A stretch of DNA of 64,000 nucleotides from a phage: the sequence record PZ386953.1; one strand, 5' to 3'. Position 1 is the stretch's first letter; each line of letters starts with the position of its first letter. The position numbers and the translations under genes were made by a program. A model generated the notes under the pieces. It was not told the origin of the DNA and ran no database searches. It saw nothing but the letters and a program-made list of their open reading frames with translations. Shown here one piece after another: positions 10,003 through 35,003 of the stretch.

Positions 10003-10015
10003 CAAGGGGGTAAAT

Positions 10016-10046: not shown

Positions 10047-10049
10047 TAG

Positions 10050-10250: not shown

Positions 10251-10253
10251 TTC

Positions 10254-11900: not shown

Positions 11901-12172
11901 ACCTTCTCGTTGATAAATTTACGGGCGGTTTGGTGAGTTGTTTCTGCTGTCTTCAGAATGATATTAATTTTATCGTCAAGATCATTCATCTCGGCAGTTA
12001 ATTCAGGAATCTCTCCGGCATGCATGGTGAAATCATACATAGACATGCCCAAGATCTCATTGATGCGGCGGTTGCATTCTGCAGCACGCTGGTTCATTTT
12101 CCAAGCTAACACCAAAGCCTCCTGCGTAGCCTCTAGTGCAAAATCTAATACGTCGGCCTCTTCTTTCGTCAT
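11897..12172 (-). CDS. hypothetical protein
   Basis: 91-aa ORF, stop-start overlap with neighbour. Confidence 0.4.
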   Translation of the reverse strand: MTKEEADVLDFALEATQEALVLAWKMNQRAAECNRRINEILGMSMYDFTMHAGEIPELTAEMNDLDDKINIILKTAETTHQTARKFINEKV

Positions 12173-12229
12173 CTTAGTCTCTCCTGTTGTATTGTTGGTA
12201 GGTGTATGAATACCTTATAACTCACCTTT

Positions 12230-12796: not shown

Positions 12797-12798
12797 GA

Positions 12799-13044
12799 CT
12801 ATAGCTCCACTAGCAAAGTGCTTTCAAAGTGCCGTTCATGCAAACCGTTGTAAGGGACCACTTCTACAACGCCATCACGGACATATGGGGCCATCATGGT
12901 GGTATAATCTCCAAACGGGTTGGTATTGTCACTAACCACAACCACCTTCTGCCCTTCCTTGGCAGAGTGCCAAATAGATCTGCACTTCATCAGGTGTTCG
13001 AGAGCTCCAGGTAAAATTTTGTTACGTTCTTTACGGGTCTTCAT
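12799..13044 (-). CDS. hypothetical protein
   Basis: 81-aa ORF tightly packed with neighbours. Confidence 0.4.
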   Translation of the reverse strand: MKTRKERNKILPGALEHLMKCRSIWHSAKEGQKVVVVSDNTNPFGDYTTMMAPYVRDGVVEVVPYNGLHERHFESTLLVEL

Positions 13045-13490
13045 AGCAGGTATAGCTCCTTATGAAAGTGATCTTTTAATTTCTCACTGAGAAACCTCTT
13101 GATACCTTCCTCTAAAGTGTTTTCGATGTAGTCCAGCTTAACTGCTTCGATGGACATATCATAGATTGCCAGCTCTAAGCTGTCAAGTCCCATCATAGCA
13201 TGAACCATAAGATTTTCATCTTCAGATACATTCAGGGGACTTCCTATAACATCTGGAGGCAGAATAGTTTCCCAATTATTCTGGGTGGTAGTTCTCCCGC
13301 CATCTACTTTACGGCGCAGTTCGAATGTGTTCTTAGTGTAGAACACTTCATAAGAAACGATACGACTGTCACTCTCATAATAAACGAAGTTCAGGTAGGA
13401 GCCTAGCCGCAGTCGGCAAACTTCCACCCCAAACCATTGTTTCTTATAAGAATTCAGGCTAATGCTGTCGCATTCACGTTTGCTCAACAC
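13041..13490 (-). CDS. hypothetical protein
   Basis: 149-aa ORF. Confidence 0.45.
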   Translation of the reverse strand: MLSKRECDSISLNSYKKQWFGVEVCRLRLGSYLNFVYYESDSRIVSYEVFYTKNTFELRRKVDGGRTTTQNNWETILPPDVIGSPLNVSEDENLMVHAMMGLDSLELAIYDMSIEAVKLDYIENTLEEGIKRFLSEKLKDHFHKELYLL

Positions 13491-13506
13491 GGCTATCTCC
13501 TTTTTG

Positions 13507-13740
13507 TTAATCTTCGTAAATCAGGATTTCTGCTTTAGGTTTTCGTGCTTTCAGGTCCAGCTCTATCCAGTGCACCATAGCTGTTTCAAGAAAAACAGCT
13601 TGGATGCATCCGTCCTCAGCGTGCCCCACCAACATAACGAGATCTTCACCTTCGTCATCTGCATCACGAACATAAAGAATCTCTCCAGATTCGAAGTCTT
13701 TCACAACCTGATTGCTAGATAATTTTCTAATTTTTGCCAT
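13507..13740 (-). CDS. small protein, possible divergent member of the adjacent tandem paralog array
   Basis: 77 aa, acidic; abuts the three 87-aa paralogs. Confidence 0.4.
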   Translation of the reverse strand: MAKIRKLSSNQVVKDFESGEILYVRDADDEGEDLVMLVGHAEDGCIQAVFLETAMVHWIELDLKARKPKAEILIYED

Positions 13741-13741
13741 A

Positions 13742-14005
13742 TCAGAAACCCTCTAAAAAGCTCTTGTAGAAAACAATCTCAGTATCCACACCAGTCACAA
13801 TCTTGTCGTTCCTGATTTCATCGGTAAGATAGGTGTCAAAACGCAGAACCTGTGTGGTGTTGTCACACATCCACTCAGCTGTGACCATTGCGAAAATCTT
13901 AGCATCTTCATTATCTGGTGTGAATGTTACCACCTCACCGCACTTAAACTTTTCGATAGGCTGAGTGTTAGCTTTCGGTTCTGCGATAGTGATTTTTGTG
14001 GTCAT
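13742..14005 (-). CDS. tandem paralog 1 (87 aa)
   Basis: Same length and shared motifs with the next two genes (CGEVVTF / CGTVVSC / APGTVVMF; all start MTT/MAT). Confidence 0.5.
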   Translation of the reverse strand: MTTKITIAEPKANTQPIEKFKCGEVVTFTPDNEDAKIFAMVTAEWMCDNTTQVLRFDTYLTDEIRNDKIVTGVDTEIVFYKSFLEGF

Positions 14006-14268
14006 TATTCTCCTCCTTCTTTTGAATAGCTTGTCTCTCCAAGGATGGTAATTTTGGTGTCAAGCTCTGTAACTTTCATGTTTGGCGGCAGATCGTACAA
14101 CTCATTATTTTCTAAATCGAACCCCCACACACAATGTTCTCCTGTTTTGACAATCATAACTATGTTTTGAATGCCGTCTCCGTCGCAACTTACCACGGTC
14201 CCACACGGAAAACTGTCTGCACGCTTTTTGTTCTTCACCTTAGAATTGAATACAATGCTGGTAGCCAT
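14005..14268 (-). CDS. tandem paralog 2 (87 aa)
   Basis: See paralog 1; ATGA start-stop overlaps. Confidence 0.5.
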   Translation of the reverse strand: MATSIVFNSKVKNKKRADSFPCGTVVSCDGDGIQNIVMIVKTGEHCVWGFDLENNELYDLPPNMKVTELDTKITILGETSYSKEGGE

Positions 14269-14531
14269 TATTGTTCCTCCACCATAACTTCGCCAAGAAT
14301 TTCTATGCAGGCATCCATTTCTGTAACAACCAAACTGTGAGGCAGTTCTACAAACACCTTTCTGAACAGGTCAAATACCCCAACATATATGTTTGCAGGA
14401 TGTGATTTTACAACAAGTGCTGTATTCACATCCCCAAGTTCATCAACAAACATCACCACAGTGCCTGGAGCTACTGAGGACAGATACTTCTTAGTTTTAC
14501 GGTTTGATGCAAATTTTAACTCTGTTGCCAT
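14268..14531 (-). CDS. tandem paralog 3 (87 aa)
   Basis: See paralog 1. Confidence 0.5.
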   Translation of the reverse strand: MATELKFASNRKTKKYLSSVAPGTVVMFVDELGDVNTALVVKSHPANIYVGVFDLFRKVFVELPHSLVVTEMDACIEILGEVMVEEQ

Positions 14532-14546
14532 AAATAACCTCCTCTC

Positions 14547-16028
14547 TTACTTAGCGTACTCGATTAATTCCACAGTTTTCCCAAAGCTCGGGATATAATT
14601 TTTATTATACCCCTCAGTGAGGACCCATAGAGTATCGTACTTTTTCCACTTGTTGTCAACAACCTTTTGTTCAAAGTTATGCTCAAAGTATAGGTCGGTC
14701 AGGACGATGACATCTTTTGCATTAGGTATGTTGGCATCCAGATACTCGAACACGCAAGCAGCTGTTGTGCCCCATGTTGAGTGGACCTCATAGTTGACCA
14801 TCTCGTCTATGTTGCCGCGAGTGTATACTTTAACCTCTCCAACCTCAGTTGACCAACAGAACATTGTAACCTTAAACTCTTTATACAGATTGCACAATCC
14901 GGTGATTTCATTGAACATTTTCTTTAAAGTTCTTTGAGAGATCGAGCCAGAAACGTCTAAAGCCACCACAATATCTATAGTGTTTTCCGGATTACGACCA
15001 GGAACAATAACGTGCTGGTTCTTGTTTATAGCCCCAACTTTTCGCATTGTGCTGGTCAAAGACCCAGATCGGCGACCAGGTTTTCTGTAGGTCAGTTCGG
15101 CCTTTCTTTTAGACAACATACGTTGCTTAATGATGTCTATATAGTTGATTACAGGCTTACCTCTGTTCTTGACAAACTCACGCACCGCCTCAGGGCAACG
15201 GCCTCCGGACGCTTGCATTGCTGCCTCCAGCATATCACCAGAGTCCTGCATGGCCTGATCTTTATCAGATTGGCTGATTACAGGTTGTGGCTGATCATAC
15301 CCCATAGCCTTTCCAAGATTATCACTGGTGCCACCGTTCCCACTCATGTGATCATCGGTTTGTCGCTTATCACTTTGAGAGTTCTCACCTTTACCGTTCT
15401 TACTTTTACCGTTATTCTGATCTCTTTGCTTATCAAGAACTGCATAAACGTTCTCAGCAATCCATCCATGAAACTTCATGTCGCAGTAGCAGCTGGCTAA
15501 GAAGCCAAAAGGCTTACCTTTCATGAACGTAGTGCTTTTCCCCTTCGGGAAGAAAACACAAGGAGGTTTGCTAAAGTCAACCACAAGGCCTGTGTTGATA
15601 ACGTGATCACAAGCAATATTGAACAGTTCCGGCTCAAAGCTTTTACCACGGACTAGGTGATCACAGATAATATGCCCCACCTCATGTGACAGAAGGAAGG
15701 CCACCTCTTTCACAGATTTTGGGGAATAGAAAACTTCAGCCATCTCAAACTGCTCGTCAGTTAGAGAAGCCTTAAGAATAGCCTTGCGTTCATCAGCCAA
15801 TCCCATAATGAACTCAGGACTGTAATAGATGCGTTTATGGTCGGTTGCCATGGTGGAGCACCATGTGTGGTTTTCTACGAACTGCAACCCTGACAGTAGT
15901 GTGCCATAAAACGGCAACTTTTCAAGGAGATACATACGTGCAGCCTGCAACATTCTCAGGGCATCATCTTTCTGCGAGGCAATGATTTCTGAACTTCTGC
16001 TATCCATTAAAACTCCAGGAGGGGCCAT
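14547..16028 (-). CDS. HExxH metallopeptidase-like + von Willebrand factor A (VWA) domain protein
   Basis: LLSHEVGHIICDH (HExxH) in N-terminal half; VWA MIDAS motif DxSxS as VVALDVSGSIS in C-terminal half; domain pairing typical of MoxR-associated VWA proteins. Confidence 0.65.
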   Translation of the reverse strand: MAPPGVLMDSRSSEIIASQKDDALRMLQAARMYLLEKLPFYGTLLSGLQFVENHTWCSTMATDHKRIYYSPEFIMGLADERKAILKASLTDEQFEMAEVFYSPKSVKEVAFLLSHEVGHIICDHLVRGKSFEPELFNIACDHVINTGLVVDFSKPPCVFFPKGKSTTFMKGKPFGFLASCYCDMKFHGWIAENVYAVLDKQRDQNNGKSKNGKGENSQSDKRQTDDHMSGNGGTSDNLGKAMGYDQPQPVISQSDKDQAMQDSGDMLEAAMQASGGRCPEAVREFVKNRGKPVINYIDIIKQRMLSKRKAELTYRKPGRRSGSLTSTMRKVGAINKNQHVIVPGRNPENTIDIVVALDVSGSISQRTLKKMFNEITGLCNLYKEFKVTMFCWSTEVGEVKVYTRGNIDEMVNYEVHSTWGTTAACVFEYLDANIPNAKDVIVLTDLYFEHNFEQKVVDNKWKKYDTLWVLTEGYNKNYIPSFGKTVELIEYAK

Positions 16029-16040
16029 TGGCCCCTGTCA

Positions 16041-17081
16041 TTATTTAACGTGTTTGAAAATACCTGCCAACTCGGTCATTGTCATGCGGGTGGTCTTCAT
16101 AAGATCTGTCATAGCTTTCTCCATAATTGGAGATACTACCATAAAGTTTCCTTTAGTGAAACCTTTATTCCAGTCGGTCACCAACAGGGGTTTAAGTCCA
16201 GCTCCAAGACGTTCACCAGTTAAAGCACAGCATTTGCGAATATACGAACTCTTAAATTGGCTGAACGACAGATCAACTTTCATACCTACATCGTAGAACG
16301 TTTGACAATAGAAAGTGTAAGCTTTGGCAATCTCAACATCATCAGGTAGTGCAGGAACCTCTTCTGTAAGCCCCTCTTCGACCTCCTGAGTCTCTTTTTC
16401 CTCTTCATGCACCTGTTGCGTCATTTCTTCAATCTCTTCTGTGATAGGCTCGTTTACAATGTCGGAAATGTGCTTCTTGGGTGCACGATAAGTAACTTTA
16501 GACATCGGTAGCATATCTTCCTCCTCTTCTTCGTCAAAGAGTGCTAGTTTATCCTCTTCCGTTCCATATTGCAAGATGAAATCTTCAAAAGTATAATCAC
16601 CTTTCAATTTCTCCATACGCTCTTCGCTCAGGTGGAGCATCATCTGCTGGACAATTTTTCGATCAGTTTCGTCTTTAATCAAGACTGCAGTCTTTTTATC
16701 TACCAGACAGTCCTTTAGAGAGTTGCATCTCAATCCCACCACACAACAGTTATCAACCGCATAAGGACCTTCATCATCTATCCGCTCCAGGGATGGGTAG
16801 AAAGGATTCCCCAGCCCGTTTTCATCTGTGTGCATGTCAAAAGGTATAAGGGTATAGTCGCATACTCCATCTCCTAAAAGTTTTTTACCAAATAGGAGGT
16901 ATTCTTCCCATGACAGGTCGAACTCTATATCTCGTTTCCGTGCGTTATTCTGTTTGCGTCTATATTTTTTGAGCAAGCGCTCTAACTCTTCTGGTGTATA
17001 ATATTTTTCAAGATTCATGAGTCGTCTCTCGTGCTCTGTAAGTGAAGAAATCGTATCAATTGTCTCAACAGATGTCAACAT
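16041..17081 (-). CDS. acidic hypothetical protein (possible degenerate HNH-like region; internal SD+ATG)
   Basis: 347-codon ORF from TTG at 17084, ATG one codon later; poly-acidic stretches; internal GAGGAGG+ATG at the MSKVTYRA motif. Confidence 0.45.
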   Translation of the reverse strand: MLTSVETIDTISSLTEHERRLMNLEKYYTPEELERLLKKYRRKQNNARKRDIEFDLSWEEYLLFGKKLLGDGVCDYTLIPFDMHTDENGLGNPFYPSLERIDDEGPYAVDNCCVVGLRCNSLKDCLVDKKTAVLIKDETDRKIVQQMMLHLSEERMEKLKGDYTFEDFILQYGTEEDKLALFDEEEEEDMLPMSKVTYRAPKKHISDIVNEPITEEIEEMTQQVHEEEKETQEVEEGLTEEVPALPDDVEIAKAYTFYCQTFYDVGMKVDLSFSQFKSSYIRKCCALTGERLGAGLKPLLVTDWNKGFTKGNFMVVSPIMEKAMTDLMKTTRMTMTELAGIFKHVK

Positions 17082-17091
17082 CAAAAACGTG

Positions 17092-17120
17092 TTGACTTTA
17101 CTCTAACTCCACAATATAGT
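17092..17120 (+). promoter_or_regulatory. sigma70-like promoter in divergent intergenic region
   Basis: TTGACT - 17 bp - TATAGT about 40 bp upstream of gene at 17161. Confidence 0.5.
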
Positions 17121-17160
17121 GCACCCATTCGAAAGAAAACTAACATAGGAGCACTTACTT

Positions 17161-18060
17161 ATGGCAAATCTTAACAGTTTTAGTACGCGGTGGAAACAGG
17201 ACATAACAACCAATCTTTCAGCTGGGGACATCCTTTCTGCAATTTACGAGGCTTTAGATGATAAAGCTACTTCAAAAGCGGTTTGTACCAACCCATTAAT
17301 TCCTATAGTGATGAAGGTTATTGAGCGTAGATTGGTATCTGGGTCTGATAAGTGGACATATTTAGATAATGAAGGACACACCTATTCCAATGGGTATGTC
17401 GATATAAAAGTAGAATACGCGGTATCATACCGCCGGAGCGGTTCTGTAACTTTCAACTTCTCTGGAGGTTTTCGATCTCTGGCTACCTCACCTTTTGTTT
17501 CCTCGGAGGAGAAGTATGAGCTGCCATTTCTTTGGATGATGGCTAACGCGACAGGAAAAACCCCCGTTAGCATCCGAGTAAAATACAACTACAACGGATC
17601 TAGTAAGATCTATGCCGAAAGTGTCTCAGCAAGTTTTTATTTTGTGATGGGGGATGGAATCCTCAAACATATAAAGATGTGCGATATGCATGATGTTATA
17701 AATGAAGTGACTGATAAGAATGTTCTAGTGAAAGACCTCAACAATTTTTATACACCTGGAGACTATTACGTCAGCCGTCCACTGTGCATCTTTAATGCCG
17801 CACACCCTCTAGGTGAGTATTTGATCGCCAATAGCGATATTGCCAATAACCGCTTCGAGGTAGCAAGAGTTCAGAATGAGGTATTGACATCTTGCAAGAG
17901 CGGTGATAAGTTTACCGAAGAAGAGATGGGTGTTTTAGAAATGATGGGATATAAGTGTAGCCTTTGGGTAGATGAGGTGTTTAATGATTGCATCTATGGA
18001 CAGGATATTTACCCATTAAAGAAGTATACTGATACAAGTTTAATTTATGCGAGGGTTTGA
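17161..18060 (+). CDS. hypothetical protein
   Basis: 299-aa ORF with AGGAG SD. Confidence 0.5.
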   Translation: MANLNSFSTRWKQDITTNLSAGDILSAIYEALDDKATSKAVCTNPLIPIVMKVIERRLVSGSDKWTYLDNEGHTYSNGYVDIKVEYAVSYRRSGSVTFNFSGGFRSLATSPFVSSEEKYELPFLWMMANATGKTPVSIRVKYNYNGSSKIYAESVSASFYFVMGDGILKHIKMCDMHDVINEVTDKNVLVKDLNNFYTPGDYYVSRPLCIFNAAHPLGEYLIANSDIANNRFEVARVQNEVLTSCKSGDKFTEEEMGVLEMMGYKCSLWVDEVFNDCIYGQDIYPLKKYTDTSLIYARV

Positions 18061-23773: not shown

Positions 23774-24979
23774 ATGATTTTCATCTACGAACATTTCAAA
23801 ACCCGTAAAGAAGCACGAGACCGCCGTGCAGAACTTGAGAAGAAGGGTTTCACATGTGCCGTTGAGAAAGGCGACACAACCTGGACACTGGCAGTTGGTG
23901 CCCCAGAGTTGTTCGATCCTGACCGTGACAGCGTCTGCTACACCCGTGAGGATTTTGAAACCCGCGAAGAGGCCCGTTTATTTCGATACGGTCTGGAAGA
24001 TAACGGTAAGTACGCTATGATCTTAGATTTAGGCGAAGGTTCCGTTAAACGTTGGGGCGTGGTATACCCACTGTGTGTTGTTCACGGTGTGGGGTTCACT
24101 GGGGTGGCAATCAAGTCAGAAGAACCTTTAGTAGAAGTCAAAGATCCGGTGCTGGAGGTGGTGAGCAGTGTGTCTCAGCAACAGACTCGAAACATCGAGC
24201 CTTTGGTGGTTATTTGTGGGGAACTCCTCCAGATCACCTGCAACGAAGGCATTTTTGAAATTCGCCGCAGCGAAAGTGAGGAAGTTTACCAGAAAGTCTT
24301 CGACCATATCTCTGTTCAGGAATATGACGAGGCAATTGGTGAAATCCTTGTCTGGTTGGAACGCAAGAATGAGTTCACTACACTTGCAGACAACCTGATT
24401 ATGAAAGATGGTAAGCTCTATTACTACGGTGTAGAGATGCAATCTACCATTGCAAAGAAAATTGAGGAAGATTATATAGATGGAACACTGGACGACCGAT
24501 ATGTTAAATTCCTTGTCCGTCTGCTACGCAACCCGTCTGCAAAATCTGTGAACATGCTCTACGATTTCATGCAGGCTAATGACATCCAGGTTGCAGAAGA
24601 TGGTCGAATCATTTGCTATAAGGGGGTTCAGTTTAACGGAAGCAAGTGGGTGGATTGGCACAGCGGTAAAGTTCCACAATACCAGGGTGCTTTTGTATCC
24701 ATGCCTCGTAACTTTGTAGAAGATGATCCGGAAGCTGCGTGTTCTTATGGCCTGCACTGCGCCAGCAAAGAGTATGCAGCGGGCTATGGCACCGTAATGA
24801 TGGTTATGGTTGACCCTGCGGATGTGGTTAGTGTGCCATACCAACACAACAGTGCTAAGTGCCGTGCATGCCGCTACGAAATCGTAGCAGCACCGGAATC
24901 ACGCAAAGATGGCGATCCGATTGAATACGTGGTTGACCGTGATGGTAACACTATCGACATTCTTTACGAGGAGGCGTAA
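23774..24979 (+). CDS. rIIB: rIIB-like protein (putative)
   Basis: 401-aa ORF immediately downstream of the rIIA-like gene; assignment by synteny only. Confidence 0.3.
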   Translation: MIFIYEHFKTRKEARDRRAELEKKGFTCAVEKGDTTWTLAVGAPELFDPDRDSVCYTREDFETREEARLFRYGLEDNGKYAMILDLGEGSVKRWGVVYPLCVVHGVGFTGVAIKSEEPLVEVKDPVLEVVSSVSQQQTRNIEPLVVICGELLQITCNEGIFEIRRSESEEVYQKVFDHISVQEYDEAIGEILVWLERKNEFTTLADNLIMKDGKLYYYGVEMQSTIAKKIEEDYIDGTLDDRYVKFLVRLLRNPSAKSVNMLYDFMQANDIQVAEDGRIICYKGVQFNGSKWVDWHSGKVPQYQGAFVSMPRNFVEDDPEAACSYGLHCASKEYAAGYGTVMMVMVDPADVVSVPYQHNSAKCRACRYEIVAAPESRKDGDPIEYVVDRDGNTIDILYEEA

Positions 24980-26349
24980 TGGAAAAAGGGCAGTATGATG
25001 TAGGCACAGATGCTGCCCTCGTTGCAATCATGAGCGGTGAGAATGTCTTCGTTTCAGGACCCGCAGGTTGTGGGAAGACGTACCTCATCAACATGATCCA
25101 GTCAATGTATGGAGACTCTTGCATAACGGTTGCCCCGACAGGGGTAGCCGCTTTAAACGTTAATGGAGCAACAGCACACCGAACCTTCGATCTTGCAGCA
25201 GGTGTGAGCATGGAGTCAGACTGGACCGCAATAAGGGCAAAAACAGCAAAGCCTTTGAAGAGCAAGGCATTTACCATCCTAATTATCGATGAAATCTCTA
25301 TGATCCGTGCTGATAAGTTTATAGAGATGGATAGGAAACTCCGCTTCCTTCGAAAAAATGACAAACCTTTCGGAGGCATACAGGTCATATTGTTTGGCGA
25401 TTTTTACCAGGCACCTCCTGTTGTCTCTTCTATGGAGAAGGAAGCCTACTTCAACTTCTACCATACGGACTTGTGTTGCTATACCGAATCTTGGAAAGAG
25501 CTTGACCTCCACAACATAGCCCTAATAGATCAGTTCCGACAGGAGTCTATTCGATTTGCTACAATGCTCAACTGTGTTCGTGAGGGTCGTCGTATAAAAG
25601 AGGTTGTAGCAGAACTTAATGCTCGCTGTTACAAAGGAGGTGTACCAACAGACGCTCTCACAATTTGCGCCACCAACAAACAAGCAGAGGAAGTGAACAG
25701 AAGGTTCTATGATGCCATCAACGCCCCAGAGAAGGTATACACTGGTGAAATGAAGGGTAAGTTTCCCTCTACCTTGCCAGTTGAGCAGGAGATGAAGTTG
25801 AAAATTGGCATGAAAGTTATGATAACCGCCAACGATGTTGACCCGACGCACAAAGTACCTTATTATGTTAACGGAACACGTGCCACAATTGTTAAATTTA
25901 AGAACAAGGCGGTGGTGGTGGAGCTTGAAGATGGAACACAGGTTGACATAGAACAAAGGTTGTGGGAGAATAACGAGTATAAGCCATCTCAAAGATACAA
26001 CATTGCAGAAAGGAAGATGGAGAAGTTTATAGAGAGGGTAGTGATTGGATCATACAAGCAACTCCCTCTGAAATCTGGGTACGCCGTAACATCTCATAAA
26101 AGTCAAGGACTTACGCTAGATTGTTACAACCTGGACCTTGGAAAGAACGGAGCTTTCTCTCCTGGGATGACGTATGTTGCTTTGAGTCGAGTTAAGACAA
26201 TACAAGGAATAAACTTGTTGCGTCCACTAAGAGAAGTTGACATTATTGTTGACCCGCGAGTAGTAGAGTTTTACAATACAACCTTTCCTGACTTAGACAA
26301 AATTGTCAGGAAAGATTTTGAAACCAGAGCAGAAGAGGGGGACGTATGA
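24979..26349 (+). CDS. dda: Dda/RecD/Pif1-like SF1B DNA helicase
   Basis: Walker A VSGPAGCGKTY, motif II ILIIDEISMI, motif III ILFGDFYQAPPV, motif V YAVTSHKSQGLT, motif VI YVALSRVK. Confidence 0.75.
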   Translation: MEKGQYDVGTDAALVAIMSGENVFVSGPAGCGKTYLINMIQSMYGDSCITVAPTGVAALNVNGATAHRTFDLAAGVSMESDWTAIRAKTAKPLKSKAFTILIIDEISMIRADKFIEMDRKLRFLRKNDKPFGGIQVILFGDFYQAPPVVSSMEKEAYFNFYHTDLCCYTESWKELDLHNIALIDQFRQESIRFATMLNCVREGRRIKEVVAELNARCYKGGVPTDALTICATNKQAEEVNRRFYDAINAPEKVYTGEMKGKFPSTLPVEQEMKLKIGMKVMITANDVDPTHKVPYYVNGTRATIVKFKNKAVVVELEDGTQVDIEQRLWENNEYKPSQRYNIAERKMEKFIERVVIGSYKQLPLKSGYAVTSHKSQGLTLDCYNLDLGKNGAFSPGMTYVALSRVKTIQGINLLRPLREVDIIVDPRVVEFYNTTFPDLDKIVRKDFETRAEEGDV

Positions 26350-26687
26350 GTTTGTGGAGAAATATAGTTAACTACGTGTGTGGCAATCCAACTCCTGAAG
26401 AGAAGGATGTTGTGATTCACGATTTTACTAAAAGATCTCGTGAAAAAGATCTACTGCTGACAAAGGTGACTGATAAAGATCCTGCAGTAGGGGACTGGGC
26501 AGGTTTTGCGTTTACATCGGACAAATACACCTTTAACAAAGGTGACTATCTTGTTGTGGATTTTAACGAAGACATCGAGGGTGCTGAACCTTACTATCAA
26601 ACCCTTATTGTTGCAGGGTGTGTTAATCTCTCTGCAGGTATGCACAGTTTGATTCTTTTTGAGCTTGACTCTGAAGACCTTGAGTAG
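26346..26687 (+). CDS. hypothetical protein
   Basis: 113-aa ORF. Confidence 0.45.
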   Translation: MSLWRNIVNYVCGNPTPEEKDVVIHDFTKRSREKDLLLTKVTDKDPAVGDWAGFAFTSDKYTFNKGDYLVVDFNEDIEGAEPYYQTLIVAGCVNLSAGMHSLILFELDSEDLE

Positions 26688-26748: not shown

Positions 26749-28074
26749 ATGAGTAAAACCAAATTAGAACTAACCTGGATAGGTAAAAACGAGCGCAAAA
26801 AGTTAGAGCCGCACATTTTGTTAGAAGATTCTAGCAAGTCTTACCACAGCCAGAAAGTGACTGAAAACGATATTTTTGATAATAAACTGATTTTTGGAGA
26901 TAACTTATTAGCATTGAAGGCGCTAGAGCAAGAGTATGCAGGCAAAGTGAAGTGTGTTTACATAGACCCACCATTCAATACTGGAAGGGCTTTTGAGCAC
27001 TACGATGATAGCCTTGAGCATTCCATTTGGCTGGGCTTAATGAGGGATAGGTTAGAAATAATTCGTAATCTTCTAAGTGATGATGGGGTAATATTCGTTC
27101 ACTTAGATGATTGCGAAATGGCGTATTTAAAAGTTTTGATGGACGAGATTTTTGGTCGTGCAAATCAGTTAAATACCATATCGATGACCACAAATTCCCC
27201 TTCGGGATTTAAGGCAATAGGAGCCACAGTTTTCTCCACAGCAAACTTTTTGCTTGTATATGCAAAAGATCGCACCCAGAAACCGCTTAACAAAATCTAT
27301 ATACCTAAAGGGTATGATACAGGATATAACAAATACCTATTAAACCCGGATGACCATTATAAAAATTGGACGTGGTGCGGTATTGCCGATGCGTTTGCAA
27401 AGGCCAATGGCTATAAAGATGCAAAAGAGGCCAAGAAAAAACTGCCTGATACATTCGATGATGAATTAGCACAATTCGCAATTGATAATGCAGAACGTGT
27501 ATTTCAATCTGTTGCAATCGGCGGTGGTGCTAAAATAAAGAGAAAAGAAACTATCGAGAAGTCAAAGAAAGATAGGGATAAGGTTTATGTACATCCAAAT
27601 GAAGATGTTGAAGGATTTTATATCGTAAATGGTAGGCAAATGGTCTTTTACTCCAACAGGCTTTTGGAAATTGACGGTGATATGCAACCTGCGGAACTAA
27701 TAACTGATGTTTGGACAGACATTAGTTGGAATGGAATAGCAAATGAAGGCGGCGTTAGTTTCAAAAATGGGAAAAAACCAGAAGCGCTTTTGAAGCGAAT
27801 TTTCGAAATGTGTACGCGAGAAGGCGATTTGGTATTGGATTCATTCGGTGGTTCGGGAACTACTGCTGCTGTAGCTCACAAGATGAAAAGACGTTGGATC
27901 TCAATCGAGCTGGGTGATCATTGTCATACCCATATTATTCCGCGCTTGGAAAAAGTGATCGATGGTGAAGATCAAGGTGGTATTTCTAAGTCTGTAAACT
28001 GGCAAGGTGGTGGTGGCTTCAGTTATTACAAACTTGCCCCGACCTTAATTGCGAAAGATAAGTCTGATCAATAA
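26749..28074 (+). CDS. DNA methyltransferase (beta-class N6-adenine/N4-cytosine, type III Mod-like)
   Basis: Motif IV DPPF (VYIDPPFNT) N-terminal to motif I FxGxG (LDSFGGSGTT): circularly permuted beta-class order. Confidence 0.7.
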   Translation: MSKTKLELTWIGKNERKKLEPHILLEDSSKSYHSQKVTENDIFDNKLIFGDNLLALKALEQEYAGKVKCVYIDPPFNTGRAFEHYDDSLEHSIWLGLMRDRLEIIRNLLSDDGVIFVHLDDCEMAYLKVLMDEIFGRANQLNTISMTTNSPSGFKAIGATVFSTANFLLVYAKDRTQKPLNKIYIPKGYDTGYNKYLLNPDDHYKNWTWCGIADAFAKANGYKDAKEAKKKLPDTFDDELAQFAIDNAERVFQSVAIGGGAKIKRKETIEKSKKDRDKVYVHPNEDVEGFYIVNGRQMVFYSNRLLEIDGDMQPAELITDVWTDISWNGIANEGGVSFKNGKKPEALLKRIFEMCTREGDLVLDSFGGSGTTAAVAHKMKRRWISIELGDHCHTHIIPRLEKVIDGEDQGGISKSVNWQGGGGFSYYKLAPTLIAKDKSDQ

Positions 28075-28087
28075 AGAGTACAATCAA

Positions 28088-28393
28088 ATGATGAAATGTT
28101 ATAAACCATACACTTTTGAAATCGATTTCGAACTTGACGATATGTTCACTGTGGAAGCTCAGGCAGTTGTCCAGTTGCCAGACCCAGAGTGCCGTGATTC
28201 TGATGTTGACTATTACGGATTTAGACAAATTACCGATGTGCATGTTTACCACAACGGTGAAGAGGTGGACTTCCACCAATTGCCAAACGATATGCGCCAC
28301 TCAATTTACAAACGTGCAGCCCGTGAACTAGAGTCCTATCTGGATGCAGCGACGACAGCAGCTGCATTTGCTGAAGAAGTGGGAGGTTTCTGA
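28088..28393 (+). CDS. hypothetical protein
   Basis: ORF trimmed to first ATG after the methyltransferase stop. Confidence 0.4.
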   Translation: MMKCYKPYTFEIDFELDDMFTVEAQAVVQLPDPECRDSDVDYYGFRQITDVHVYHNGEEVDFHQLPNDMRHSIYKRAARELESYLDAATTAAAFAEEVGGF

Positions 28394-28788
28394 TGATTAC
28401 AGGTGTGAAGATTATCCAATACCACTTAACCAAATTGGAAGATGCTGAAAAAGAGCTTGCAGAAGTTCTAAATAGTGGATATACTTTGCTATCATGCGCC
28501 TGCTCAGACACCTACGCTGTGTGGACACTTATCCGGAAGGAGGAGCCTGCAGGGATCTTGGTGCCAAACCCTAAGATTATCAGTGAAGTGGATGACTGCT
28601 CTCAGGACGGCCTGTCAGAAGACTGGGAAGCATGGGAAGGTGGTGAAAACCCTGCACCAGGTAAGTGGGTAAAATACAAACTACGTAGCGGTGCACAGCA
28701 CGCTGGATACTCTGATAACCTGGACTGGAGTCATTCTTCACCGGAATCATTGGTAAGTGCATATGATATCGTTGCTTTTCAGGAATAA
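28393..28788 (+). CDS. hypothetical protein
   Basis: 131-aa ORF, ATGA overlap. Confidence 0.45.
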   Translation: MITGVKIIQYHLTKLEDAEKELAEVLNSGYTLLSCACSDTYAVWTLIRKEEPAGILVPNPKIISEVDDCSQDGLSEDWEAWEGGENPAPGKWVKYKLRSGAQHAGYSDNLDWSHSSPESLVSAYDIVAFQE

Positions 28789-28800
28789 GGAGAGAGTGTT

Positions 28801-29283
28801 ATGTCAGATTTTATGTGGAAAGTAGGTTATGCCTCTCCTGAAATGTGCGAGGCTTGCTTTGTAAAAATAGGCCGCGAGGATATTGACAAAGTGATCTTTA
28901 AGTTTCGTGATGTATCTGTGATCGGCAACCGAGTGCTTAAGCACTTAAAGAATCTGAAGCTCACCAAAAAGAAGTTCTTCGGACTTTTCGAAGAGAAAGT
29001 TGATGCTTGGACCCATTGCATTCAGGAAGCTAAATCTCACTACAGTGCTATCGTTACCCCAGAACGGGTAGCCAAGATGGAAGGATTCATCAACAGCACA
29101 GAGTTTGAGTGCCTAAAGGCTGCCCTTAATAGTTATCCAAAGTGCCTCAAACACCTTGACAAGTATGTAGAAAAGGATGGGGAAATGTATCTCACCCTGG
29201 ATGCATACTATGAGATGCAAGAAATTTTAAATTTAGATTTGACATTGGTATCCACCGAGTATACAATAGGTATCCGGGTTTAA
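28801..29283 (+). CDS. hypothetical protein
   Basis: 160-aa ORF with AAGGAGAGAG SD. Confidence 0.45.
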   Translation: MSDFMWKVGYASPEMCEACFVKIGREDIDKVIFKFRDVSVIGNRVLKHLKNLKLTKKKFFGLFEEKVDAWTHCIQEAKSHYSAIVTPERVAKMEGFINSTEFECLKAALNSYPKCLKHLDKYVEKDGEMYLTLDAYYEMQEILNLDLTLVSTEYTIGIRV

Positions 29284-29289
29284 CACTAG

Positions 29290-29316
29290 GCCCTGCCCGA
29301 AAGGGTGGGGCTTTTT
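29290..29316 (+). terminator. intrinsic terminator (hairpin identical to the one at 39424)
   Basis: GCCCTGCCC-GAAA-GGGTGGGGC then TTTTT; two G-U wobbles make it strand-specific. Confidence 0.75.
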
Positions 29317-29334
29317 GCATTAGGAGACAGCAAA

Positions 29335-30099
29335 TTGAAATTTATCTATAAAGAACACTACCACAAAGGTGTTGTGTGGAGTCTATTTGACGGATCTGGC
29401 GGTGCAGTCATTGACTGGGCAAAAGCTGGATATCTGTGCCTGTGCTTTAACGCAGAAGGTGCTGACCACGGCAGTTATGCAGAGGTGATCACCGATCATC
29501 CCAACATTCACTATGTGGACTATTGGATTGACCCGTGGTTCCCTCAGGAAACTTTTTGCATGTATCCGGCTCCAGATTTTATTCTTGCATTTCCTCCGTG
29601 CACGCATTTAGCGGTATCAGGTGCTGCACATTTTAAGAAAAAGCTGGCTAAGGACCCCATGATCCAAATTAATGCTGTAAAGGATGCTCGGGTTGCGGAA
29701 GAGCTGGGAGAGATTTACGATTGCCCGTGGCATGTAGAGAATCCTGTGGGTGTTATGTCCACACTGTGGCGCAAACCTGATTACCGTTTTCACCCTTCGG
29801 ATTATGGCGGGTATTTACCGGAAGATGATGTAAACCCATGGTTTCCTGAATTTATAGCTCCACGTGATGCCTATCCAAAAATAACTTGCGGCTGGATAGG
29901 TAATGGATTTATAATCCCAGCCACAAAACCTGTCCCGCAAATAGTTGACGCGGTTAGCGGGTATTCCATGCAACACGCCAAGCTGGGTGGAAAGAGTGCA
30001 AGAACGAAGATGATTCGAAGCCTCACACCACGTGGCTGGGCAAAAGCCGTATTCCTAGCAAACGAGCCTGTAGTAAGGAGCAGAATTAATGGGAAGTAA
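29335..30099 (+). CDS. C5-cytosine methyltransferase-like protein (divergent, short)
   Basis: TTG start 7 nt after AGGAGA SD; motif I FDGSGG, motif IV-like FPPCTHLAVSG (Cys retained, Gln replaced by Thr), motif VI-like VENPVG; no obvious target-recognition domain. Confidence 0.45.
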   Translation: MKFIYKEHYHKGVVWSLFDGSGGAVIDWAKAGYLCLCFNAEGADHGSYAEVITDHPNIHYVDYWIDPWFPQETFCMYPAPDFILAFPPCTHLAVSGAAHFKKKLAKDPMIQINAVKDARVAEELGEIYDCPWHVENPVGVMSTLWRKPDYRFHPSDYGGYLPEDDVNPWFPEFIAPRDAYPKITCGWIGNGFIIPATKPVPQIVDAVSGYSMQHAKLGGKSARTKMIRSLTPRGWAKAVFLANEPVVRSRINGK

Positions 30100-32167
30100 A
30101 TTTATGGCATCTGCATACAACCGTTTCGGTGAGCCAAACCCGAAAGCAACTAAGTATAAAAGTGGGGGAAGTGTGAAACGAGACTATCGTGATGAAAAAG
30201 AAGTTGAAACTGTAGAGACTGTTTTAGAAAATACTAAAATTGTCCCTGTCCCACAACAAAATATCGGTCTGATGGCTGCACAATATTTTGGTGTGCGATC
30301 AGCATTGTCCCAAGAAGACGGTGTGACAGTCACTGCAACATATTTCCCATATTACGACCGCTACGGAAATCTGTCTGGTTTCAAAAAGCGTGACTGGACT
30401 ATTCCTAAAGAGCAAAGGGGCCATTTCTCCGTTGTTGGCATCGTAAAGGCCAACTCCCAGATGTTTGGTCAAAAGCTGTGTGCATCTTCCAACAACCGTA
30501 AGCAGATTAACGTTTGTGAGGGAGAAGGTGATGTTATTGCAGCATGGCAGGCTGCATATCAGATACAAGTAAAAGGGATTCTCACCAACGCTAAAGCCCC
30601 GGCAAAGGTGAAGCAGTGGGCTAAAGAGGTCCAGGACGGGATCGACGCAGTTATCAACGGTGGTGATCTGGCAGGAAAACCCTGCCTGCCTTTTGTTGGA
30701 ATTAACTGTGGATGTGCAAACGCAGTAGATACTTTTGCAAACAATGAGAAGTTTATCCGTAGCTATGGAACAGTTGTGCTGGCAATGGATAACGATGCAG
30801 CTAACGAGGTAGAGAAGCAAAAACACGTCATTAAAGGTGTTGAGGCCACGCACAATATCGCAGCATTTTTGATGGCTGATAACGTTTACCACGTAGAATA
30901 CCCTGGTGAAGTAAATGACCCTGACGGTGTAAAAGATATCCGAGACATGCTGAAGGCTAAAAAGCTGGAAGATATTGTCAACATGTTCCGGCACCCTGTT
31001 AAATATGTGCCTGATGCTGTGTCGGATTTAGAAGACTTCTCTATCGAGTCTTTGCGGAAAAAGACTTCCAACGGGGTAGATATCAGTGCAGAGTTCCCAA
31101 AACTGCAAAAAATGCTAAAAGGCTTGCACAAAGGGACACTTGTAATGCTTACAGGTCCATCAGGCGGCGGTAAAACAACCGTGGCTAAAAAACTGGAACA
31201 CTGTATTGCAAGATACCTAATGGACCCGACATGCCCGAAGGCCGATGACTATGAAGAGGATGATCGTCTATGCATGATTCATCTTGAGGAGGACCCAGAG
31301 GAAGCAATTAACTCCTTGTATGCAAACCAGTTAGGGTTTGATGTTAAAGAGTTTGTTGAAGATCCTAGCCAGTTTTTAACTGATCAAGAACACGCAGAGA
31401 TTCACCAATCATGGGCAAAAGCTGGAAAAATCAAAGTGTTCAAACATTTCGGGTCTATTCCAGTGGACGAGTTGATTACCAAGCTTAAGCAAATGGTTTG
31501 CCTGTACCATTGTCGTTATATTGTGCTGGATCACCTGTCCATGGTAATTTCAGGGCTTAATGTTAAGGATGAGCGAAAAGAACTGGACATGGCTATGACC
31601 CAACTGGCTGCGTTTTGTAAGCAGTTTAACGTGTTTATCTTGGTGATCGCTCACCTCAAACGTACAGAGATTGTGCCCCCTAAGGACAAGGATGGTAACC
31701 CATTACCTTTCTGGTATCCTGTGCGAAAAGAGAATTTGCGAGGATCGGCTGGGCTTGAACAGTTGAGTTGGGTAGTCATAGGTGTCGAGGCCGAAGAAAT
31801 GGTGGATCGTTCTCGTGGACGTGTCCGTCTGGTAGGTCTTAAAAACCGTCCAGCAAAAACTTTAGGTATTGCTGACACTTTAGTTATGGATCCGCATACA
31901 GGTAAGTTCCATGATGCCAGTAATTGGTACTGGGACAAAGAAATGCAGATGTTTACAGACGGAGAAGGTGGGGAGGTTGTTTGGAGACCTCAGGCTATGT
32001 TTGAGGATCAGGAGCATGCAGTTGTAGAAACACCTATGGGCAAGGTTGTGGCTGATAAGGTTGTAACACCCACTGTCAAGCCTATTGACACGCAGGAAGA
32101 CCTCCAATACGATGATCCATCCTCTGATCCGGTCCCTGGTTTTGAGGATGATGAAACACCTTTTTAA
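30089..32167 (+). CDS. primase-helicase (TOPRIM primase + SF4 DnaB-like helicase, T7 gp4-like)
   Basis: TOPRIM Glu (VCEGEGD) and DxD (LAMDNDAANE); Walker A LTGPSGGGKTT; Walker B IVLDHLSMV; acidic C-terminus ...FEDDETPF. Confidence 0.7.
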   Translation: MGSKFMASAYNRFGEPNPKATKYKSGGSVKRDYRDEKEVETVETVLENTKIVPVPQQNIGLMAAQYFGVRSALSQEDGVTVTATYFPYYDRYGNLSGFKKRDWTIPKEQRGHFSVVGIVKANSQMFGQKLCASSNNRKQINVCEGEGDVIAAWQAAYQIQVKGILTNAKAPAKVKQWAKEVQDGIDAVINGGDLAGKPCLPFVGINCGCANAVDTFANNEKFIRSYGTVVLAMDNDAANEVEKQKHVIKGVEATHNIAAFLMADNVYHVEYPGEVNDPDGVKDIRDMLKAKKLEDIVNMFRHPVKYVPDAVSDLEDFSIESLRKKTSNGVDISAEFPKLQKMLKGLHKGTLVMLTGPSGGGKTTVAKKLEHCIARYLMDPTCPKADDYEEDDRLCMIHLEEDPEEAINSLYANQLGFDVKEFVEDPSQFLTDQEHAEIHQSWAKAGKIKVFKHFGSIPVDELITKLKQMVCLYHCRYIVLDHLSMVISGLNVKDERKELDMAMTQLAAFCKQFNVFILVIAHLKRTEIVPPKDKDGNPLPFWYPVRKENLRGSAGLEQLSWVVIGVEAEEMVDRSRGRVRLVGLKNRPAKTLGIADTLVMDPHTGKFHDASNWYWDKEMQMFTDGEGGEVVWRPQAMFEDQEHAVVETPMGKVVADKVVTPTVKPIDTQEDLQYDDPSSDPVPGFEDDETPF

Positions 32168-32225: not shown

Positions 32226-35003
32226 ATGAGCATGTGGTCGTTCGACTTTGAGTCATCCGGTTTGCTGGAAGATCCAGATCTTTATTATCACTGCGGCCTG
32301 TTTAAAGAGCTGAATAAGAACCGTTTTATGCTGTTCCTTCCTCTAAATGACCGCACACACTACTCCGAAGAGGATATAGAGAAGGCTAAGAACTTTATTC
32401 TGGCAAAGAAAACTCTTCATAAAGATTTTGAAGTTCGCATAGCAGATTTTTCGGAGTTGGAAGGTTGGCTTACAGGCAATTCCGACTGGTCACCAACAGC
32501 TTTGAACTGCCATAACTGCTACAGTTATGACTTTATGCTGATGGAAAGATTATCCGGTATTCATTTTGATATGTTCCGTGATCCTAAATGCATGGGGACT
32601 ATCAACGACCACCAGGTTAACCTGTTTGATACGTTGGCGATGAGCAGAATCTTGTGGCCTGATCGCCCTTTACCAAAAGGTTGTCCGGACTCTGTATTCA
32701 ACCCGGTTACTAAGAAAATGCAGCCTGTTGGTCCTCACGGCCTTATGGCATGGGGCTACGCCCTTGGTAACCAGAAAGTTCAAATTGATGACTGGCGCGA
32801 TCTTCCGTTGTGGAAGTATGTGGATCGTGTATTCGAGGACGTTATCATCCAGGAGCTGCTCTGGAAAGAGCTGGTAGCGGAATCAAAAGGTGTATTCTAC
32901 GGCAAATCTGACATGCAGAACTTTATGTACGATCCAGCCAAAGAGAAGCCGAAAGGGTTCAAGAAAATCACCTGGAAGAACGCATTACGCCGAGGCATGC
33001 TGCAGCACTTCCTGATGGAGCTGCAGGCCCGTCAGGGTGTATACTTCGACATAGATGGAGCTATTGCTTTACGTGACCGTTGTGATGCGTGGATGAAAGA
33101 AATCGCTGATCGTGTTGAACCTCAACTTCCTTTAAAAGAGCTGTCAATGTCTCAGCGGCCCAAGTTCCCTGAAAAGCCGTTTAACCAAGATGGGACAATC
33201 TCCAACAATGGTTGGAAATGGTTAAAAGATAAGCTTGGCTATCCTGTGGACATGAGTGCTTTGGAGTTCAAAGCCCCGCCTAAGCGAGCATTTACCTCCA
33301 CAGGAGATGTCAGCAAGATGGGGATAAAATGGTGTGAAGAGATGGGCTGCAAAGACCCTGATAAGATGGCTGATTTCTTGAGAGGCTATATTAAGGGCAC
33401 TTCCACACCACAACCTTTACCTAAAGAGCTGATGGATCAGGCAATAAGTGATCTACAGCAGAAGCGAATGCCGGACTGCAAGATACCTATGAAAATCAGC
33501 AATCAGGACGACATTAAGCGATACCTGATCAGTGCTGGTTGGCTTCCGACAATGTGGAGAACTAAGGATGTAACTAAAGACAGCAAGAAGAAAGCTCTAC
33601 CTGATGCAGATGTTGATGCACGAGTATATGCATACATGGACGAGCTTTTAGAGTCAGAGTATTGTGACCTGATTATCAACTTCTGGAACAAAACTGATGC
33701 TAAGTTTCAGACAACCGTGCACAAGTTCCGAAGCTTTCCTAACTCCGAAAGGATTAAAAAGGAAGTATTCGGGAAAATACGTAGAAAAGCCAGAGCACTT
33801 ATTACTTCTCCGCAGCTGAAAGATACGTTTGGACACCTATGCCCAAATCTTGAAAAATTGAACGGAGAGATGGCTAAAGATATCGTCTTGTGGTTATCAT
33901 TGCGAAACCGCAGATCGGTCCTTGATCCAATCAAGGAGGATAAGGTTGATACTGGTCTTCTTAATCACCCACGTTTGAAGATTGACCATAAGCTTCCTGC
34001 TAAAAGTTCTGGATTAACAAACACTTCCCGACAGAAACACAGTATTTGTGCAAACATGCCTAAACCATCTCCTAAAGTGGTTATGGGTAAAGAGATGCGC
34101 AGTCTGTGGGGTGTTCCTCCAGGATACTTTGAGATCGGTATTGACGGGTCCAACTTAGAGCAGCTTATCGGGGCTTGGGGTGCCTTTGAGTTCGACAACG
34201 GCCTGTATTACGATGTTGTAAGTAACGGGGATGCCCACCAAAACAATGCTGAGGCATATACGAAAGTAGCAGGTAGAGAGGTGTCTCGTAACGACGGTAA
34301 ACCTATCACGTACGGGGTTATGTATGGGGCACAAAAAGATAAAGTTGCAGACATGCTGGATATCTCCCCAGAGTTGGGGCAAAGGGTAATCGATGCGCTT
34401 TGGGATGCCAACCCTGGTCTTAAAGGGCGTAAAGAGGATCTGGAGAAATTCTGGGAAGCAACGGGTAAGAAGTTTATCTACTCTTTTGATGGTCATGCTA
34501 TCTGGACCCGATCTAAACACTCTTTACTTAATGCATACCAACAAAATGGTGGTGCATCGTTGTGTGACTTAGTTGGGATACTCATGCACCACCAAATGGT
34601 GAAGCGTGGGTGGTACGATGAAGGTGTTCGTCGTATTATTTATTACCATGATGAGTACCAACTTCAGGTCCCTGACACGCCTAAGTATAAGACTGTGTAC
34701 ACCTTCGACACAATTGAAGAATTGGAAGCATTTAAGGCAGAGCAGGAGGCCAAACTTCATGTGTTTGACGGTCATAAGTACAAAAAGGCACGCAAGGATG
34801 AAAACGGAAACGAAGTGGTTGACAGAGACGGAAACACGGTGTACGATCCTATCCTGAACGATGACGGAAAGCTTGAACTTATCTGGAGCCCTGTGGGTGA
34901 AATGGTGGTGCATTGCTTCTGGCAAGCTTCTAAAATGATGGGCGTTCCATTCCAGATCACAGGTGAATACTTGTGTGGTCGGAACTGGGGTGATTGTCAC
35001 TAA
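32226..35003 (+). CDS. family A DNA polymerase with 3'-5' exonuclease domain
   Basis: Exo I FDFESSGL, Exo II NCYSYDF, pol motif B K..YGVMYG, motif C YYHDEYQL. Confidence 0.8.
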   Translation: MSMWSFDFESSGLLEDPDLYYHCGLFKELNKNRFMLFLPLNDRTHYSEEDIEKAKNFILAKKTLHKDFEVRIADFSELEGWLTGNSDWSPTALNCHNCYSYDFMLMERLSGIHFDMFRDPKCMGTINDHQVNLFDTLAMSRILWPDRPLPKGCPDSVFNPVTKKMQPVGPHGLMAWGYALGNQKVQIDDWRDLPLWKYVDRVFEDVIIQELLWKELVAESKGVFYGKSDMQNFMYDPAKEKPKGFKKITWKNALRRGMLQHFLMELQARQGVYFDIDGAIALRDRCDAWMKEIADRVEPQLPLKELSMSQRPKFPEKPFNQDGTISNNGWKWLKDKLGYPVDMSALEFKAPPKRAFTSTGDVSKMGIKWCEEMGCKDPDKMADFLRGYIKGTSTPQPLPKELMDQAISDLQQKRMPDCKIPMKISNQDDIKRYLISAGWLPTMWRTKDVTKDSKKKALPDADVDARVYAYMDELLESEYCDLIINFWNKTDAKFQTTVHKFRSFPNSERIKKEVFGKIRRKARALITSPQLKDTFGHLCPNLEKLNGEMAKDIVLWLSLRNRRSVLDPIKEDKVDTGLLNHPRLKIDHKLPAKSSGLTNTSRQKHSICANMPKPSPKVVMGKEMRSLWGVPPGYFEIGIDGSNLEQLIGAWGAFEFDNGLYYDVVSNGDAHQNNAEAYTKVAGREVSRNDGKPITYGVMYGAQKDKVADMLDISPELGQRVIDALWDANPGLKGRKEDLEKFWEATGKKFIYSFDGHAIWTRSKHSLLNAYQQNGGASLCDLVGILMHHQMVKRGWYDEGVRRIIYYHDEYQLQVPDTPKYKTVYTFDTIEELEAFKAEQEAKLHVFDGHKYKKARKDENGNEVVDRDGNTVYDPILNDDGKLELIWSPVGEMVVHCFWQASKMMGVPFQITGEYLCGRNWGDCH

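Follow-up and report, generated by a model that had tools for sequence, protein, structure and literature searches.

Two predicted DNA methyltransferase genes, read from the same strand, bound positions 26749-30099 of the window analyzed here, by which we mean the whole 64-kb stretch of phage DNA (from sequence record PZ386953.1) out of a genome of roughly 136 kb. Judged by its sequence, the source phage is a Vequintavirus, an rV5-like E. coli phage: the 3.35 kb at 26749-30099 are 99.1% identical to Escherichia phage Murica, with 118 related records, and the other listed rV5-like Vequintavirus phages match at 97-99% identity. The region belongs to the replication gene cluster of this well-sampled lytic coliphage, and the gene pair, one encoding a Mod-like enzyme and the other a short cytosine methyltransferase, is already annotated in GenBank (curated rV5-like genomes, BASEL). 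Very probably, the two products are orphan DNA methyltransferases, independent of each other and lacking restriction partners, and the short one is an ordinary Dcm-like C5 enzyme. The two genes, with product lengths in amino acids (aa), and the motifs of the short enzyme are the following:

26749..28074, plus strand: Mod-like (type III-like, beta-class) DNA methyltransferase, orphan, 441 aa (PF01555, phrog_67 and PDB Mod matches)
29335..30099, plus strand: short C5-cytosine DNA methyltransferase, orphan, "Dcm-like", phrog_757 family, 254 aa, TTG start (motifs, phrog_757 and fold)
29386-29403, plus strand: motif I of the short methyltransferase, FDGSGG, aa 18-23
29593-29604, plus strand: motif IV of the short methyltransferase, PPCT, at aa 87, with the catalytic Cys89
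29737-29751, plus strand: motif VI of the short methyltransferase, ENPVG, at aa 135, with Glu135
30031-30033, plus strand: putative motif X Arg233 of the short methyltransferase

The product of the first gene matches PF01555 (N6_N4_Mtase) with an E value of 5.9e-42 and a score of 144.5 bits, against a cut-off of 26.7, and phrog_67 with an E value of 1.7e-63. Its sequence matches in the PDB include the H. pylori Mod protein (6k0w, E 3e-29) and the EcoP15I Mod protein (4zcf, E 4e-24). DPPF (motif IV) lies at aa 73 (nucleotides (nt) 26965-26976), ahead of FGGSG (motif I) at aa 366 (nt 27844-27858), and the protein thus has the beta-class order. An initial annotation of this DNA, made from the sequence without database searches, had placed a Mod-like enzyme with motif IV before motif I at 26749-28074, and the coordinates, the motif order and the PF01555 match all bear this out. 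DPPF is typical of adenine methyltransferases, and the 441-aa enzyme probably makes N6-methyladenine. No Res-like gene was found near the Mod-like gene, whose neighbors are a PIF1/Dda-type helicase, small open reading frames (ORFs) and a primase/helicase; because no Res gene adjoins it, we consider the methyltransferase an orphan. A type III restriction-modification system was ruled out by the same absence. The Mod-like gene was detected in 187 phage records, with at least 90% identity only in rV5-like records; outside these, identity was about 37-41% in true Campylobacter phages, and elsewhere the matches were weak or partial.

For the second gene, the initial annotation had given the span 29335-30099, 254 aa, a TTG start and the motifs FDGSGG, PPCT and ENPVG, all of which were recovered in our analysis. 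The TTG start at 29335 is credible given that an AGGAGA ribosome-binding site is found 7 nt upstream, that an alternative GTG start at 29305 falls within a terminator-like hairpin and that the same start is used in the BASEL record WalterGehring. The signals in front of the gene are:

29239..29267, plus strand: near-consensus sigma-70-like promoter, TTGACA-17-TACAAT, 11/12, inside the 3' end of ORF 28801-29283
29288..29313, plus strand: intrinsic-terminator-like hairpin of 11 pairs (7 G-C), then a T run; a "terminator" is annotated at the matching place in Murica
29322..29327, plus strand: AGGAGA, ribosome-binding site read from the sequence, 7 nt before the TTG start

Promoter-like sites occur in the region at chance frequency, their total being equal to the shuffled expectation, and we therefore treat the promoter at 29239-29267 only as a lead. 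It lies upstream, not downstream, of the hairpin at 29288-29313, which is followed by the ribosome-binding site and the weak TTG start. This layout may keep expression of a potentially toxic methyltransferase low, in the manner of an attenuator, or may be a coincidence.

The short protein is a member of a phage methyltransferase family, matching phrog_757 ("DNA methyltransferase") over its full length with an E value of 3.4e-87 (residues 10-261 when translation is taken from the upstream GTG, which gives 264 aa). By tblastn, the family was found in 1,504 phage records of many genera, mainly Escherichia, Klebsiella and Salmonella phages; a word-indexed search returned 3,555 clusters at 90% identity, and an exhaustive HMMER scan returned 1,025 clusters at 50% identity, of which the best 150 were nearly all shorter than 300 aa. 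Conservation was counted in two sets, 44 close relatives and 73 diverse relatives of the short enzyme. The catalytic Cys89 is kept in 44/44 close and 70/73 diverse relatives and Glu135 of ENP in 44/44 and 71/73, while Thr90, which follows the catalytic Cys, is found in 42/44 and 64/73 and F86 of FPPC in 41/44 and 63/73. F18, G20, S21 and G22 of motif I are kept in at least 40 of the 44 close relatives, the wider family having F/Y-D-x-T/S-G at this position. C89, E135-N136-P137 and most of motif I show little or no variation in the 44 and are largely kept in the 73; the motifs of this ORF do not reflect chance.

The catalytic domain of the short protein has the three-dimensional fold of a C5-cytosine DNA methyltransferase (PF00145-type), and the best structural match is the DNMT3A/B catalytic domain, in support of the initial annotation of the protein as C5-methyltransferase-like. 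The Pro-Cys of motif IV aligns with the PC of DNMT3B, M.HaeIII, Dcm and SpCmoX (the CmoX enzyme of Synechococcus phage S-B43, PDB 8YF3), and ENP aligns with the ENV of SpCmoX. The canonical Gln after the catalytic Cys (PCQ) is absent, its place being taken by Thr90; this Gln is not strictly required in the C5-methyltransferase fold, with PCN in DNMT3B and PCS in SpCmoX.

Two relatives of the short protein have been studied experimentally. The Dcm protein of phage KarlJaspers (MZ501090, 711-bp gene, 236 aa) is 54% identical over 235 aa (E 2e-86), and in the alignment its C82, E128 and K175 fall exactly on C89, E135 and K182 of the short protein; its K176 corresponds to Ile183, a position occupied by Lys in 38 of the 44 close relatives. 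For phage K42, which is KarlJaspers strain Hzau42, mutants that escape retron Ec86 were reported to disrupt the 711-bp dcm gene, and expression of K42 Dcm was toxic only with retron Ec86 present (Wang et al., bioRxiv 10.1101/2023.08.16.553469). In the same study, liquid chromatography-mass spectrometry showed that 5-methylcytosine (5mC) on the multicopy single-stranded DNA (msDNA) was raised by wild-type K42 Dcm and not by the C82A/E128A/K175A/K176A mutant, and 34 of the 35 sequenced Ec86-sensitive phages encode Dcm. The second relative, gp52 of Pantoea phage AAS23, belongs to the same family (53% identity) and was matched by HHpred to a Shigella C5-methyltransferase at 99.7%, with digests read as showing Dcm-methylated DNA (PMC8004638). 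The combination of an N6-adenine methylase with an HHpred-detected cytosine methylase has also been noted in other Vequintavirinae genera (PMC7344957, PMC11370258). The C5-methyltransferase assignment of the short protein rests mainly on fold, motifs and homologues, and the formation of 5mC would follow by analogy with the published behavior of the 54%-identical homologue. Modification of the phage's own DNA, the standard role of both enzymes, is most likely what the pair does.

In the mechanism we propose, both enzymes would be made alongside the replication proteins, such that newly made phage DNA would be methylated. In the active site of the short enzyme, the target cytosine would be flipped out and attacked at C6 by Cys89 (PPC, motif IV), with Glu135 (ENP, motif VI) protonating N3; the FDGSGG loop would hold S-adenosylmethionine (SAM), the donor of the methyl group, and beta-elimination would then release 5-methylcytosine. 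Recognition would fall to a short, strongly conserved region (about aa 150-232) akin to the minimal one of DNMT3A/B. The 5mC, which would probably lie at Dcm-type sites, would guard against EcoRII-type enzymes, especially in dcm-negative hosts or where replication outruns the host Dcm, and together the two enzymes would presumably let replicating phage DNA escape host restriction. There would also be a cost, by analogy with K42, as retron Ec86 can detect a Dcm of this kind.

Several observations weigh against the reading of the short protein as an ordinary Dcm-like enzyme. In Pfam and NCBIfam scans no model reached its threshold, and PF00145 gave no match to the short protein even at E<=1, though sub-threshold PF00145 matches were seen in 26 of the 44 close relatives (best E 1.3e-6). 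Searches of PDB sequences with phmmer and hmmsearch likewise gave sub-threshold matches only, whether the query was the protein itself or a profile of its close or of its diverse family. With the protein and the close-family profile these matches were C5-methyltransferases (E 0.4-1), the close-family profile aligning with DNMT3B and M.HaeIII from motif I as far as Pro-Cys in motif IV; with the diverse-family profile the top matches were unrelated proteins, and DNMT2 appeared with an E value of 0.59. The C-terminal 39 aa alone found nothing in a PDB-sequence search, and alignment of the family profile with E. coli Dcm by hhalign covered motif IV only, without significance (E 0.2). Asn39 (nt 29449-29451, at the end of strand 2) is Asp in 67 of the 73 diverse relatives. 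In the papers searched, no experiment was found on any Vequintavirus enzyme or on whether rV5-like virion DNA is methylated. Finally, the CCWGG target of K42 Dcm was assumed, the sole probe of it being mutation of the msDNA site with a host Dcm also present, and the one variable loop of the recognition region has the form "GYSxQH" in the short protein and "NPGW" in the experimentally studied K42 and AAS23 proteins, such that the CCWGG assignment may not transfer.

Two of these points, the failure of every curated model to detect the protein and an Asn in place of the usual acidic residue of motif II, speak for the idea that its methyltransferase fold has lost catalysis or been repurposed, perhaps as a DNA-binding regulator. 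We give this idea very little credence. Within the clade, the catalytic Cys, ENP and motif I do not vary, nor do many residues of the pocket, and the K42 homologue, which has the same Asn39 and PPCT, is active, with an activity that depends on the mutated catalytic residues. We also noted that throughout the enterobacterial-phage clade, K42 included, an invariant Asn followed by a clade-specific "DHG" stands at the SAM-ribose-binding acidic position of C5-methyltransferases; cofactor binding may differ subtly in this clade.

About 80 residues lie between the motif VIII region (R146-F152) and the last helix (from aa 233) of the short protein. The initial annotation had seen no room for a normal target-recognition domain; this is partly right, as the region is compact, but at about 80 residues it is in our judgement comparable to that of the DNMT3A/B catalytic domain. 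Outside one loop, this stretch (about aa 150-232) hardly varies within the family, as seen at P154, Y180, K182, T184, W187 and P195, which is uncommon in regions that recognize a target and suggests one shared or very similar target. The loop takes two forms, "NPGW" in K42/KarlJaspers, AAS23 and BubbaBully and "GYSxQH" in the short protein and SSBI34. As was assumed for the K42 homologue, the target of the short enzyme is probably a Dcm-type CCWGG site. In the window, CCWGG was observed 133 times versus 155 expected (maximal-order Markov model) and GATC 314 times versus 321, and neither is depleted. That these sites are not avoided fits protection by methylation rather than by site avoidance; the counts are compatible with such protection and do not prove it.

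An active C5-methyltransferase whose target is not CCWGG but some other, perhaps shorter, motif dictated by the "GYSxQH" loop is possible, and we regard it as the less probable but still serious alternative. The one segment of the recognition region that varies sets this clade apart from the K42/AAS23 clade, and with its 80 or so aa the region is similar to the one with which DNMT3 reads 2 bp. Moreover, the K42 specificity was assumed and not mapped, and the host Dcm in MG1655 is by itself no trigger of the retron. The listed Ec86-sensitive phages are Drexlerviridae, Siphoviridae and Demerecviridae, with no Vequintavirinae, though a Vequintavirinae phage is part of the same collection. On the other hand, the remainder of the recognition region is nearly invariant family-wide, which argues for one shared target. 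A weak argument in the same direction comes from the isolation of near-identical phages on E. coli K-12 MG1655, a strain in which McrBC and McrA act against many 5mC patterns other than that of Dcm.

The short enzyme had initially been suggested to carry out a non-canonical base modification. We find no support for this suggestion: Thr after the catalytic Cys and short length are found family-wide, and the 54%-identical K42 Dcm is reported to raise 5mC. As Thr90, the short length and the compact, conserved recognition region are all family traits, they give no sign of unusual chemistry. A specific form of such chemistry would be that the enzyme, like CmoX, transfers a carboxymethyl group from carboxy-SAM (Cx-SAM, made by E. 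coli CmoA), instead of or alongside a methyl group, to give 5-carboxymethylcytosine. In CmoX, the motif X residue R350 binds the carboxymethyl group. Arg233 of the short protein may be the equivalent of CmoX R350 and HhaI N304, as a putative assignment; P232-R233-G234-W235 precedes the last helix (233-251). The motif X region of DNMT3A reads G-R-S-W, which resembles this segment. Alignment of the family with SpCmoX by hhalign covered motifs I-VI (E 3.4e-4 to 8.5e-4) and never reached motif X.

Carboxymethylation is nevertheless unlikely. The K42 Dcm, at 54% identity, raises 5mC in E. coli, which contains Cx-SAM, whereas wild-type SpCmoX accepts Cx-SAM only. A conserved Arg is present at the motif X position of DNMT3A/B, yet these are SAM-dependent methyltransferases (PMC13594970), and within the diverse family Arg233 is found in only 52 of the 73 members. 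The profile alignment with SpCmoX covers motifs I-VI only (at best E 3.4e-4), and the "SPPC" form of motif IV that defines CmoX enzymes (PMC12783734) is replaced by FPPC in the short protein. There is no CmoA- or CmoY-like gene in the window: searches with SpCmoA and SpCmoY by phmmer, run on every window ORF of 50 aa or more, gave no match at E<=10, with 64 of roughly 136 kb covered and a host that has its own CmoA. We can also picture, as a long shot, that the clade with "GYSxQH", Asn39, FPPC-Thr and an invariant Arg233 methylates a different short motif or adds some 5-carboxymethylcytosine by way of the host carboxy-SAM. If true, CmoX-type chemistry would be available to coliphages without a phage CmoA.

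Three ORFs lie between the two methyltransferase genes, in agreement with the three unknown genes of the initial annotation:

28091..28393, plus strand: small acidic ORF, 100 aa, isoelectric point (pI) 4.4 (phrog_4240, unknown function, E 6e-33)
28393..28788, plus strand: small acidic ORF, 131 aa, pI 4.5 (phrog_11995, unknown function, E 2e-86)
28801..29283, plus strand: ORF, 160 aa (phrog_12900, unknown function, E 3e-112)

For the first of these, the mechanical list of ORFs starts at TTG 28049, and the start annotated in relatives is ATG 28091; a homologue search returned only two protein clusters, with almost no relatives outside the lineage. Pfam and NCBIfam scans of the three ORFs gave no match. 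The N-terminal ~50 aa of ORF 28393-28788 weakly resemble rIIB-like repeats (local BLAST E ~1e-3 in a tiny database), and PHROGs ties the same N-terminus to a small family labeled "DNA ligase". The ORFs at 26346-26687, 28091-28393 and 28393-28788 are strongly acidic, a trait of many phage early proteins that also marks DNA-mimic anti-restriction proteins; we found no further support for the latter identity.

The initial annotation had called the region a DNA-modification island, and a stronger version would make the two methyltransferases and the three ORFs one DNA-modification or anti-restriction module, with the acidic proteins as partners or DNA mimics. The genes adjoin one another on one strand, and two of the three intervening ORFs are acidic, as is ORF 26346-26687 just in front of the Mod-like gene (pI 4.4-4.5 for all three), but acidity is common in small phage proteins. 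ORF 28091-28393 has weak matches (E 2e-5 and 8e-3) to two short PHROGs labeled "DNA methyltransferase"; against this, the small ORFs are lineage-restricted, have no Pfam or NCBIfam match and show no detectable link to modification. The two enzymes differ in distribution, with 1,504 records for the short enzyme versus 187 for the Mod-like enzyme. The replication cluster of the related phage SSBI34 runs helicase, small ORFs, primase/helicase, small ORFs, short methyltransferase and polymerase, which puts the short gene in another place than here, with no Mod-like gene nearby, and the two methylases of Certrevirus CB7 are genes 63 and 183 (PMC7344957). The terminator at 29288-29313 also separates the ORFs from the short gene. 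Collectively, these data make a single module improbable, and we do not keep the term island.

The short gene is followed directly by a replication gene:

30089..32167, plus strand: DNA primase/helicase (phrog_239, E 6e-160; DnaB_C/AAA_25)

As read from the sequence, the ATG of the primase/helicase gene overlaps the last 11 nt of the short methyltransferase gene, and the two are therefore probably coupled in translation. The gene order of the region is matched in WalterGehring, where rIIA, rIIB, a DNA helicase, a hypothetical protein and a "putative N6 adenine methyltransferase" are followed by three hypothetical proteins, a "Dcm-like C5 cytosine methyltransferase", a DNA primase/helicase and a DNA polymerase. 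The polymerase gene differs, however: DNA polymerase I is a single unbroken 925-aa ORF in the window (32226-35003), whereas the WalterGehring coding sequence comes in two joined pieces and has one homing endonuclease within it and another just upstream. The content of introns and homing endonucleases thus differs among near-identical phages.

Further observations concern the window and its relatives. The Murica-like region is matched at >90% DNA identity by 16 "Campylobacter phage" records with the host label Campylobacter jejuni, and those listed (C12, C5, C9, A141 and D1) are 98-99% identical in DNA to 26749-30099, while the genuine Campylobacter phages CPX and F379 reach only 37-41% identity in the Mod-like protein. 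The host labels of the MG0656xx "Campylobacter phage" records look doubtful, and these may be contaminating coliphages. The rIIB-like protein (23774-24979) begins with two copies of a ~45-aa repeat, which gave a sub-threshold match to Pfam SPOR (E 1.4e-3, 19.4 bits, cut-off 21); no further copies of the repeat were found in the window. GC skew is negative at 10000-18000 and 58000-64000 and positive elsewhere in the window, and the negative stretches are consistent with blocks of minus-strand genes, as annotated in a relative.

The finding that this phage encodes two orphan methyltransferases is real but ordinary, as the genes were already annotated and the short family already has a published functional study, that of K42 Dcm. 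What the analysis brings out is a very common phage enzyme family (1,504 records, about 1,000 clusters at 50% identity) that the Pfam and NCBIfam models miss, whose target sequence has never been directly mapped and whose members carry two distinct loop variants. Its specificity would show which restriction systems are defeated, and which retron-type sensors tripped, by enzymes of the short family.

Comparison with known systems places the two enzymes as follows. The Mod-like protein shares the beta-class motif order and PF01555 with EcoP15I Mod and H. pylori Mod (6k0w), and its similarity to type III Mod subunits is significant both in the N-terminal part with DPPF and in the part with FxGxG; unlike these subunits, it is about 200 aa shorter and has no gene for a Res subunit. 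The short enzyme has the same fold and the same catalytic motifs I, IV and VI as E. coli Dcm and the M.EcoRII-type enzymes (PF00145), with presumably the same product and possibly the same CCWGG target. E. coli Dcm, however, has 472 aa and a large recognition domain, whereas the short enzyme is compact at 254 aa and stays under the PF00145 threshold. The DNMT3A and DNMT3B catalytic domains, although the best structural match, have only 13-16% identity to it (sequence E 0.4); DNMT3 enzymes target CpG, and the short protein lacks the regulatory domains and the DNMT3L-type partner of DNMT3A/B. SpCmoX differs in length (372 aa versus 254 aa), in motif IV (SPPC versus FPPC) and in its gene neighborhood, where the genes for CmoA and the ligase CmoY adjoin it and have no counterparts in the window; SpCmoX uses Cx-SAM only, while the K42 homologue of the short protein makes 5mC. 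It is the K42/KarlJaspers (Bas06) Dcm, the trigger of retron Ec86 (Eco1), that the short protein resembles in phrog_757 membership, PPCT, ENPVG, FDGSG and similar length (254 versus 236 aa), and the K42/KarlJaspers gene is likewise an orphan near helicase genes. The two differ in the variable loop ("NPGW" in K42/KarlJaspers versus "GYSxQH" in the short protein) and in their phages, KarlJaspers being a Drexlerviridae siphovirus and the source phage a Vequintavirus myovirus.

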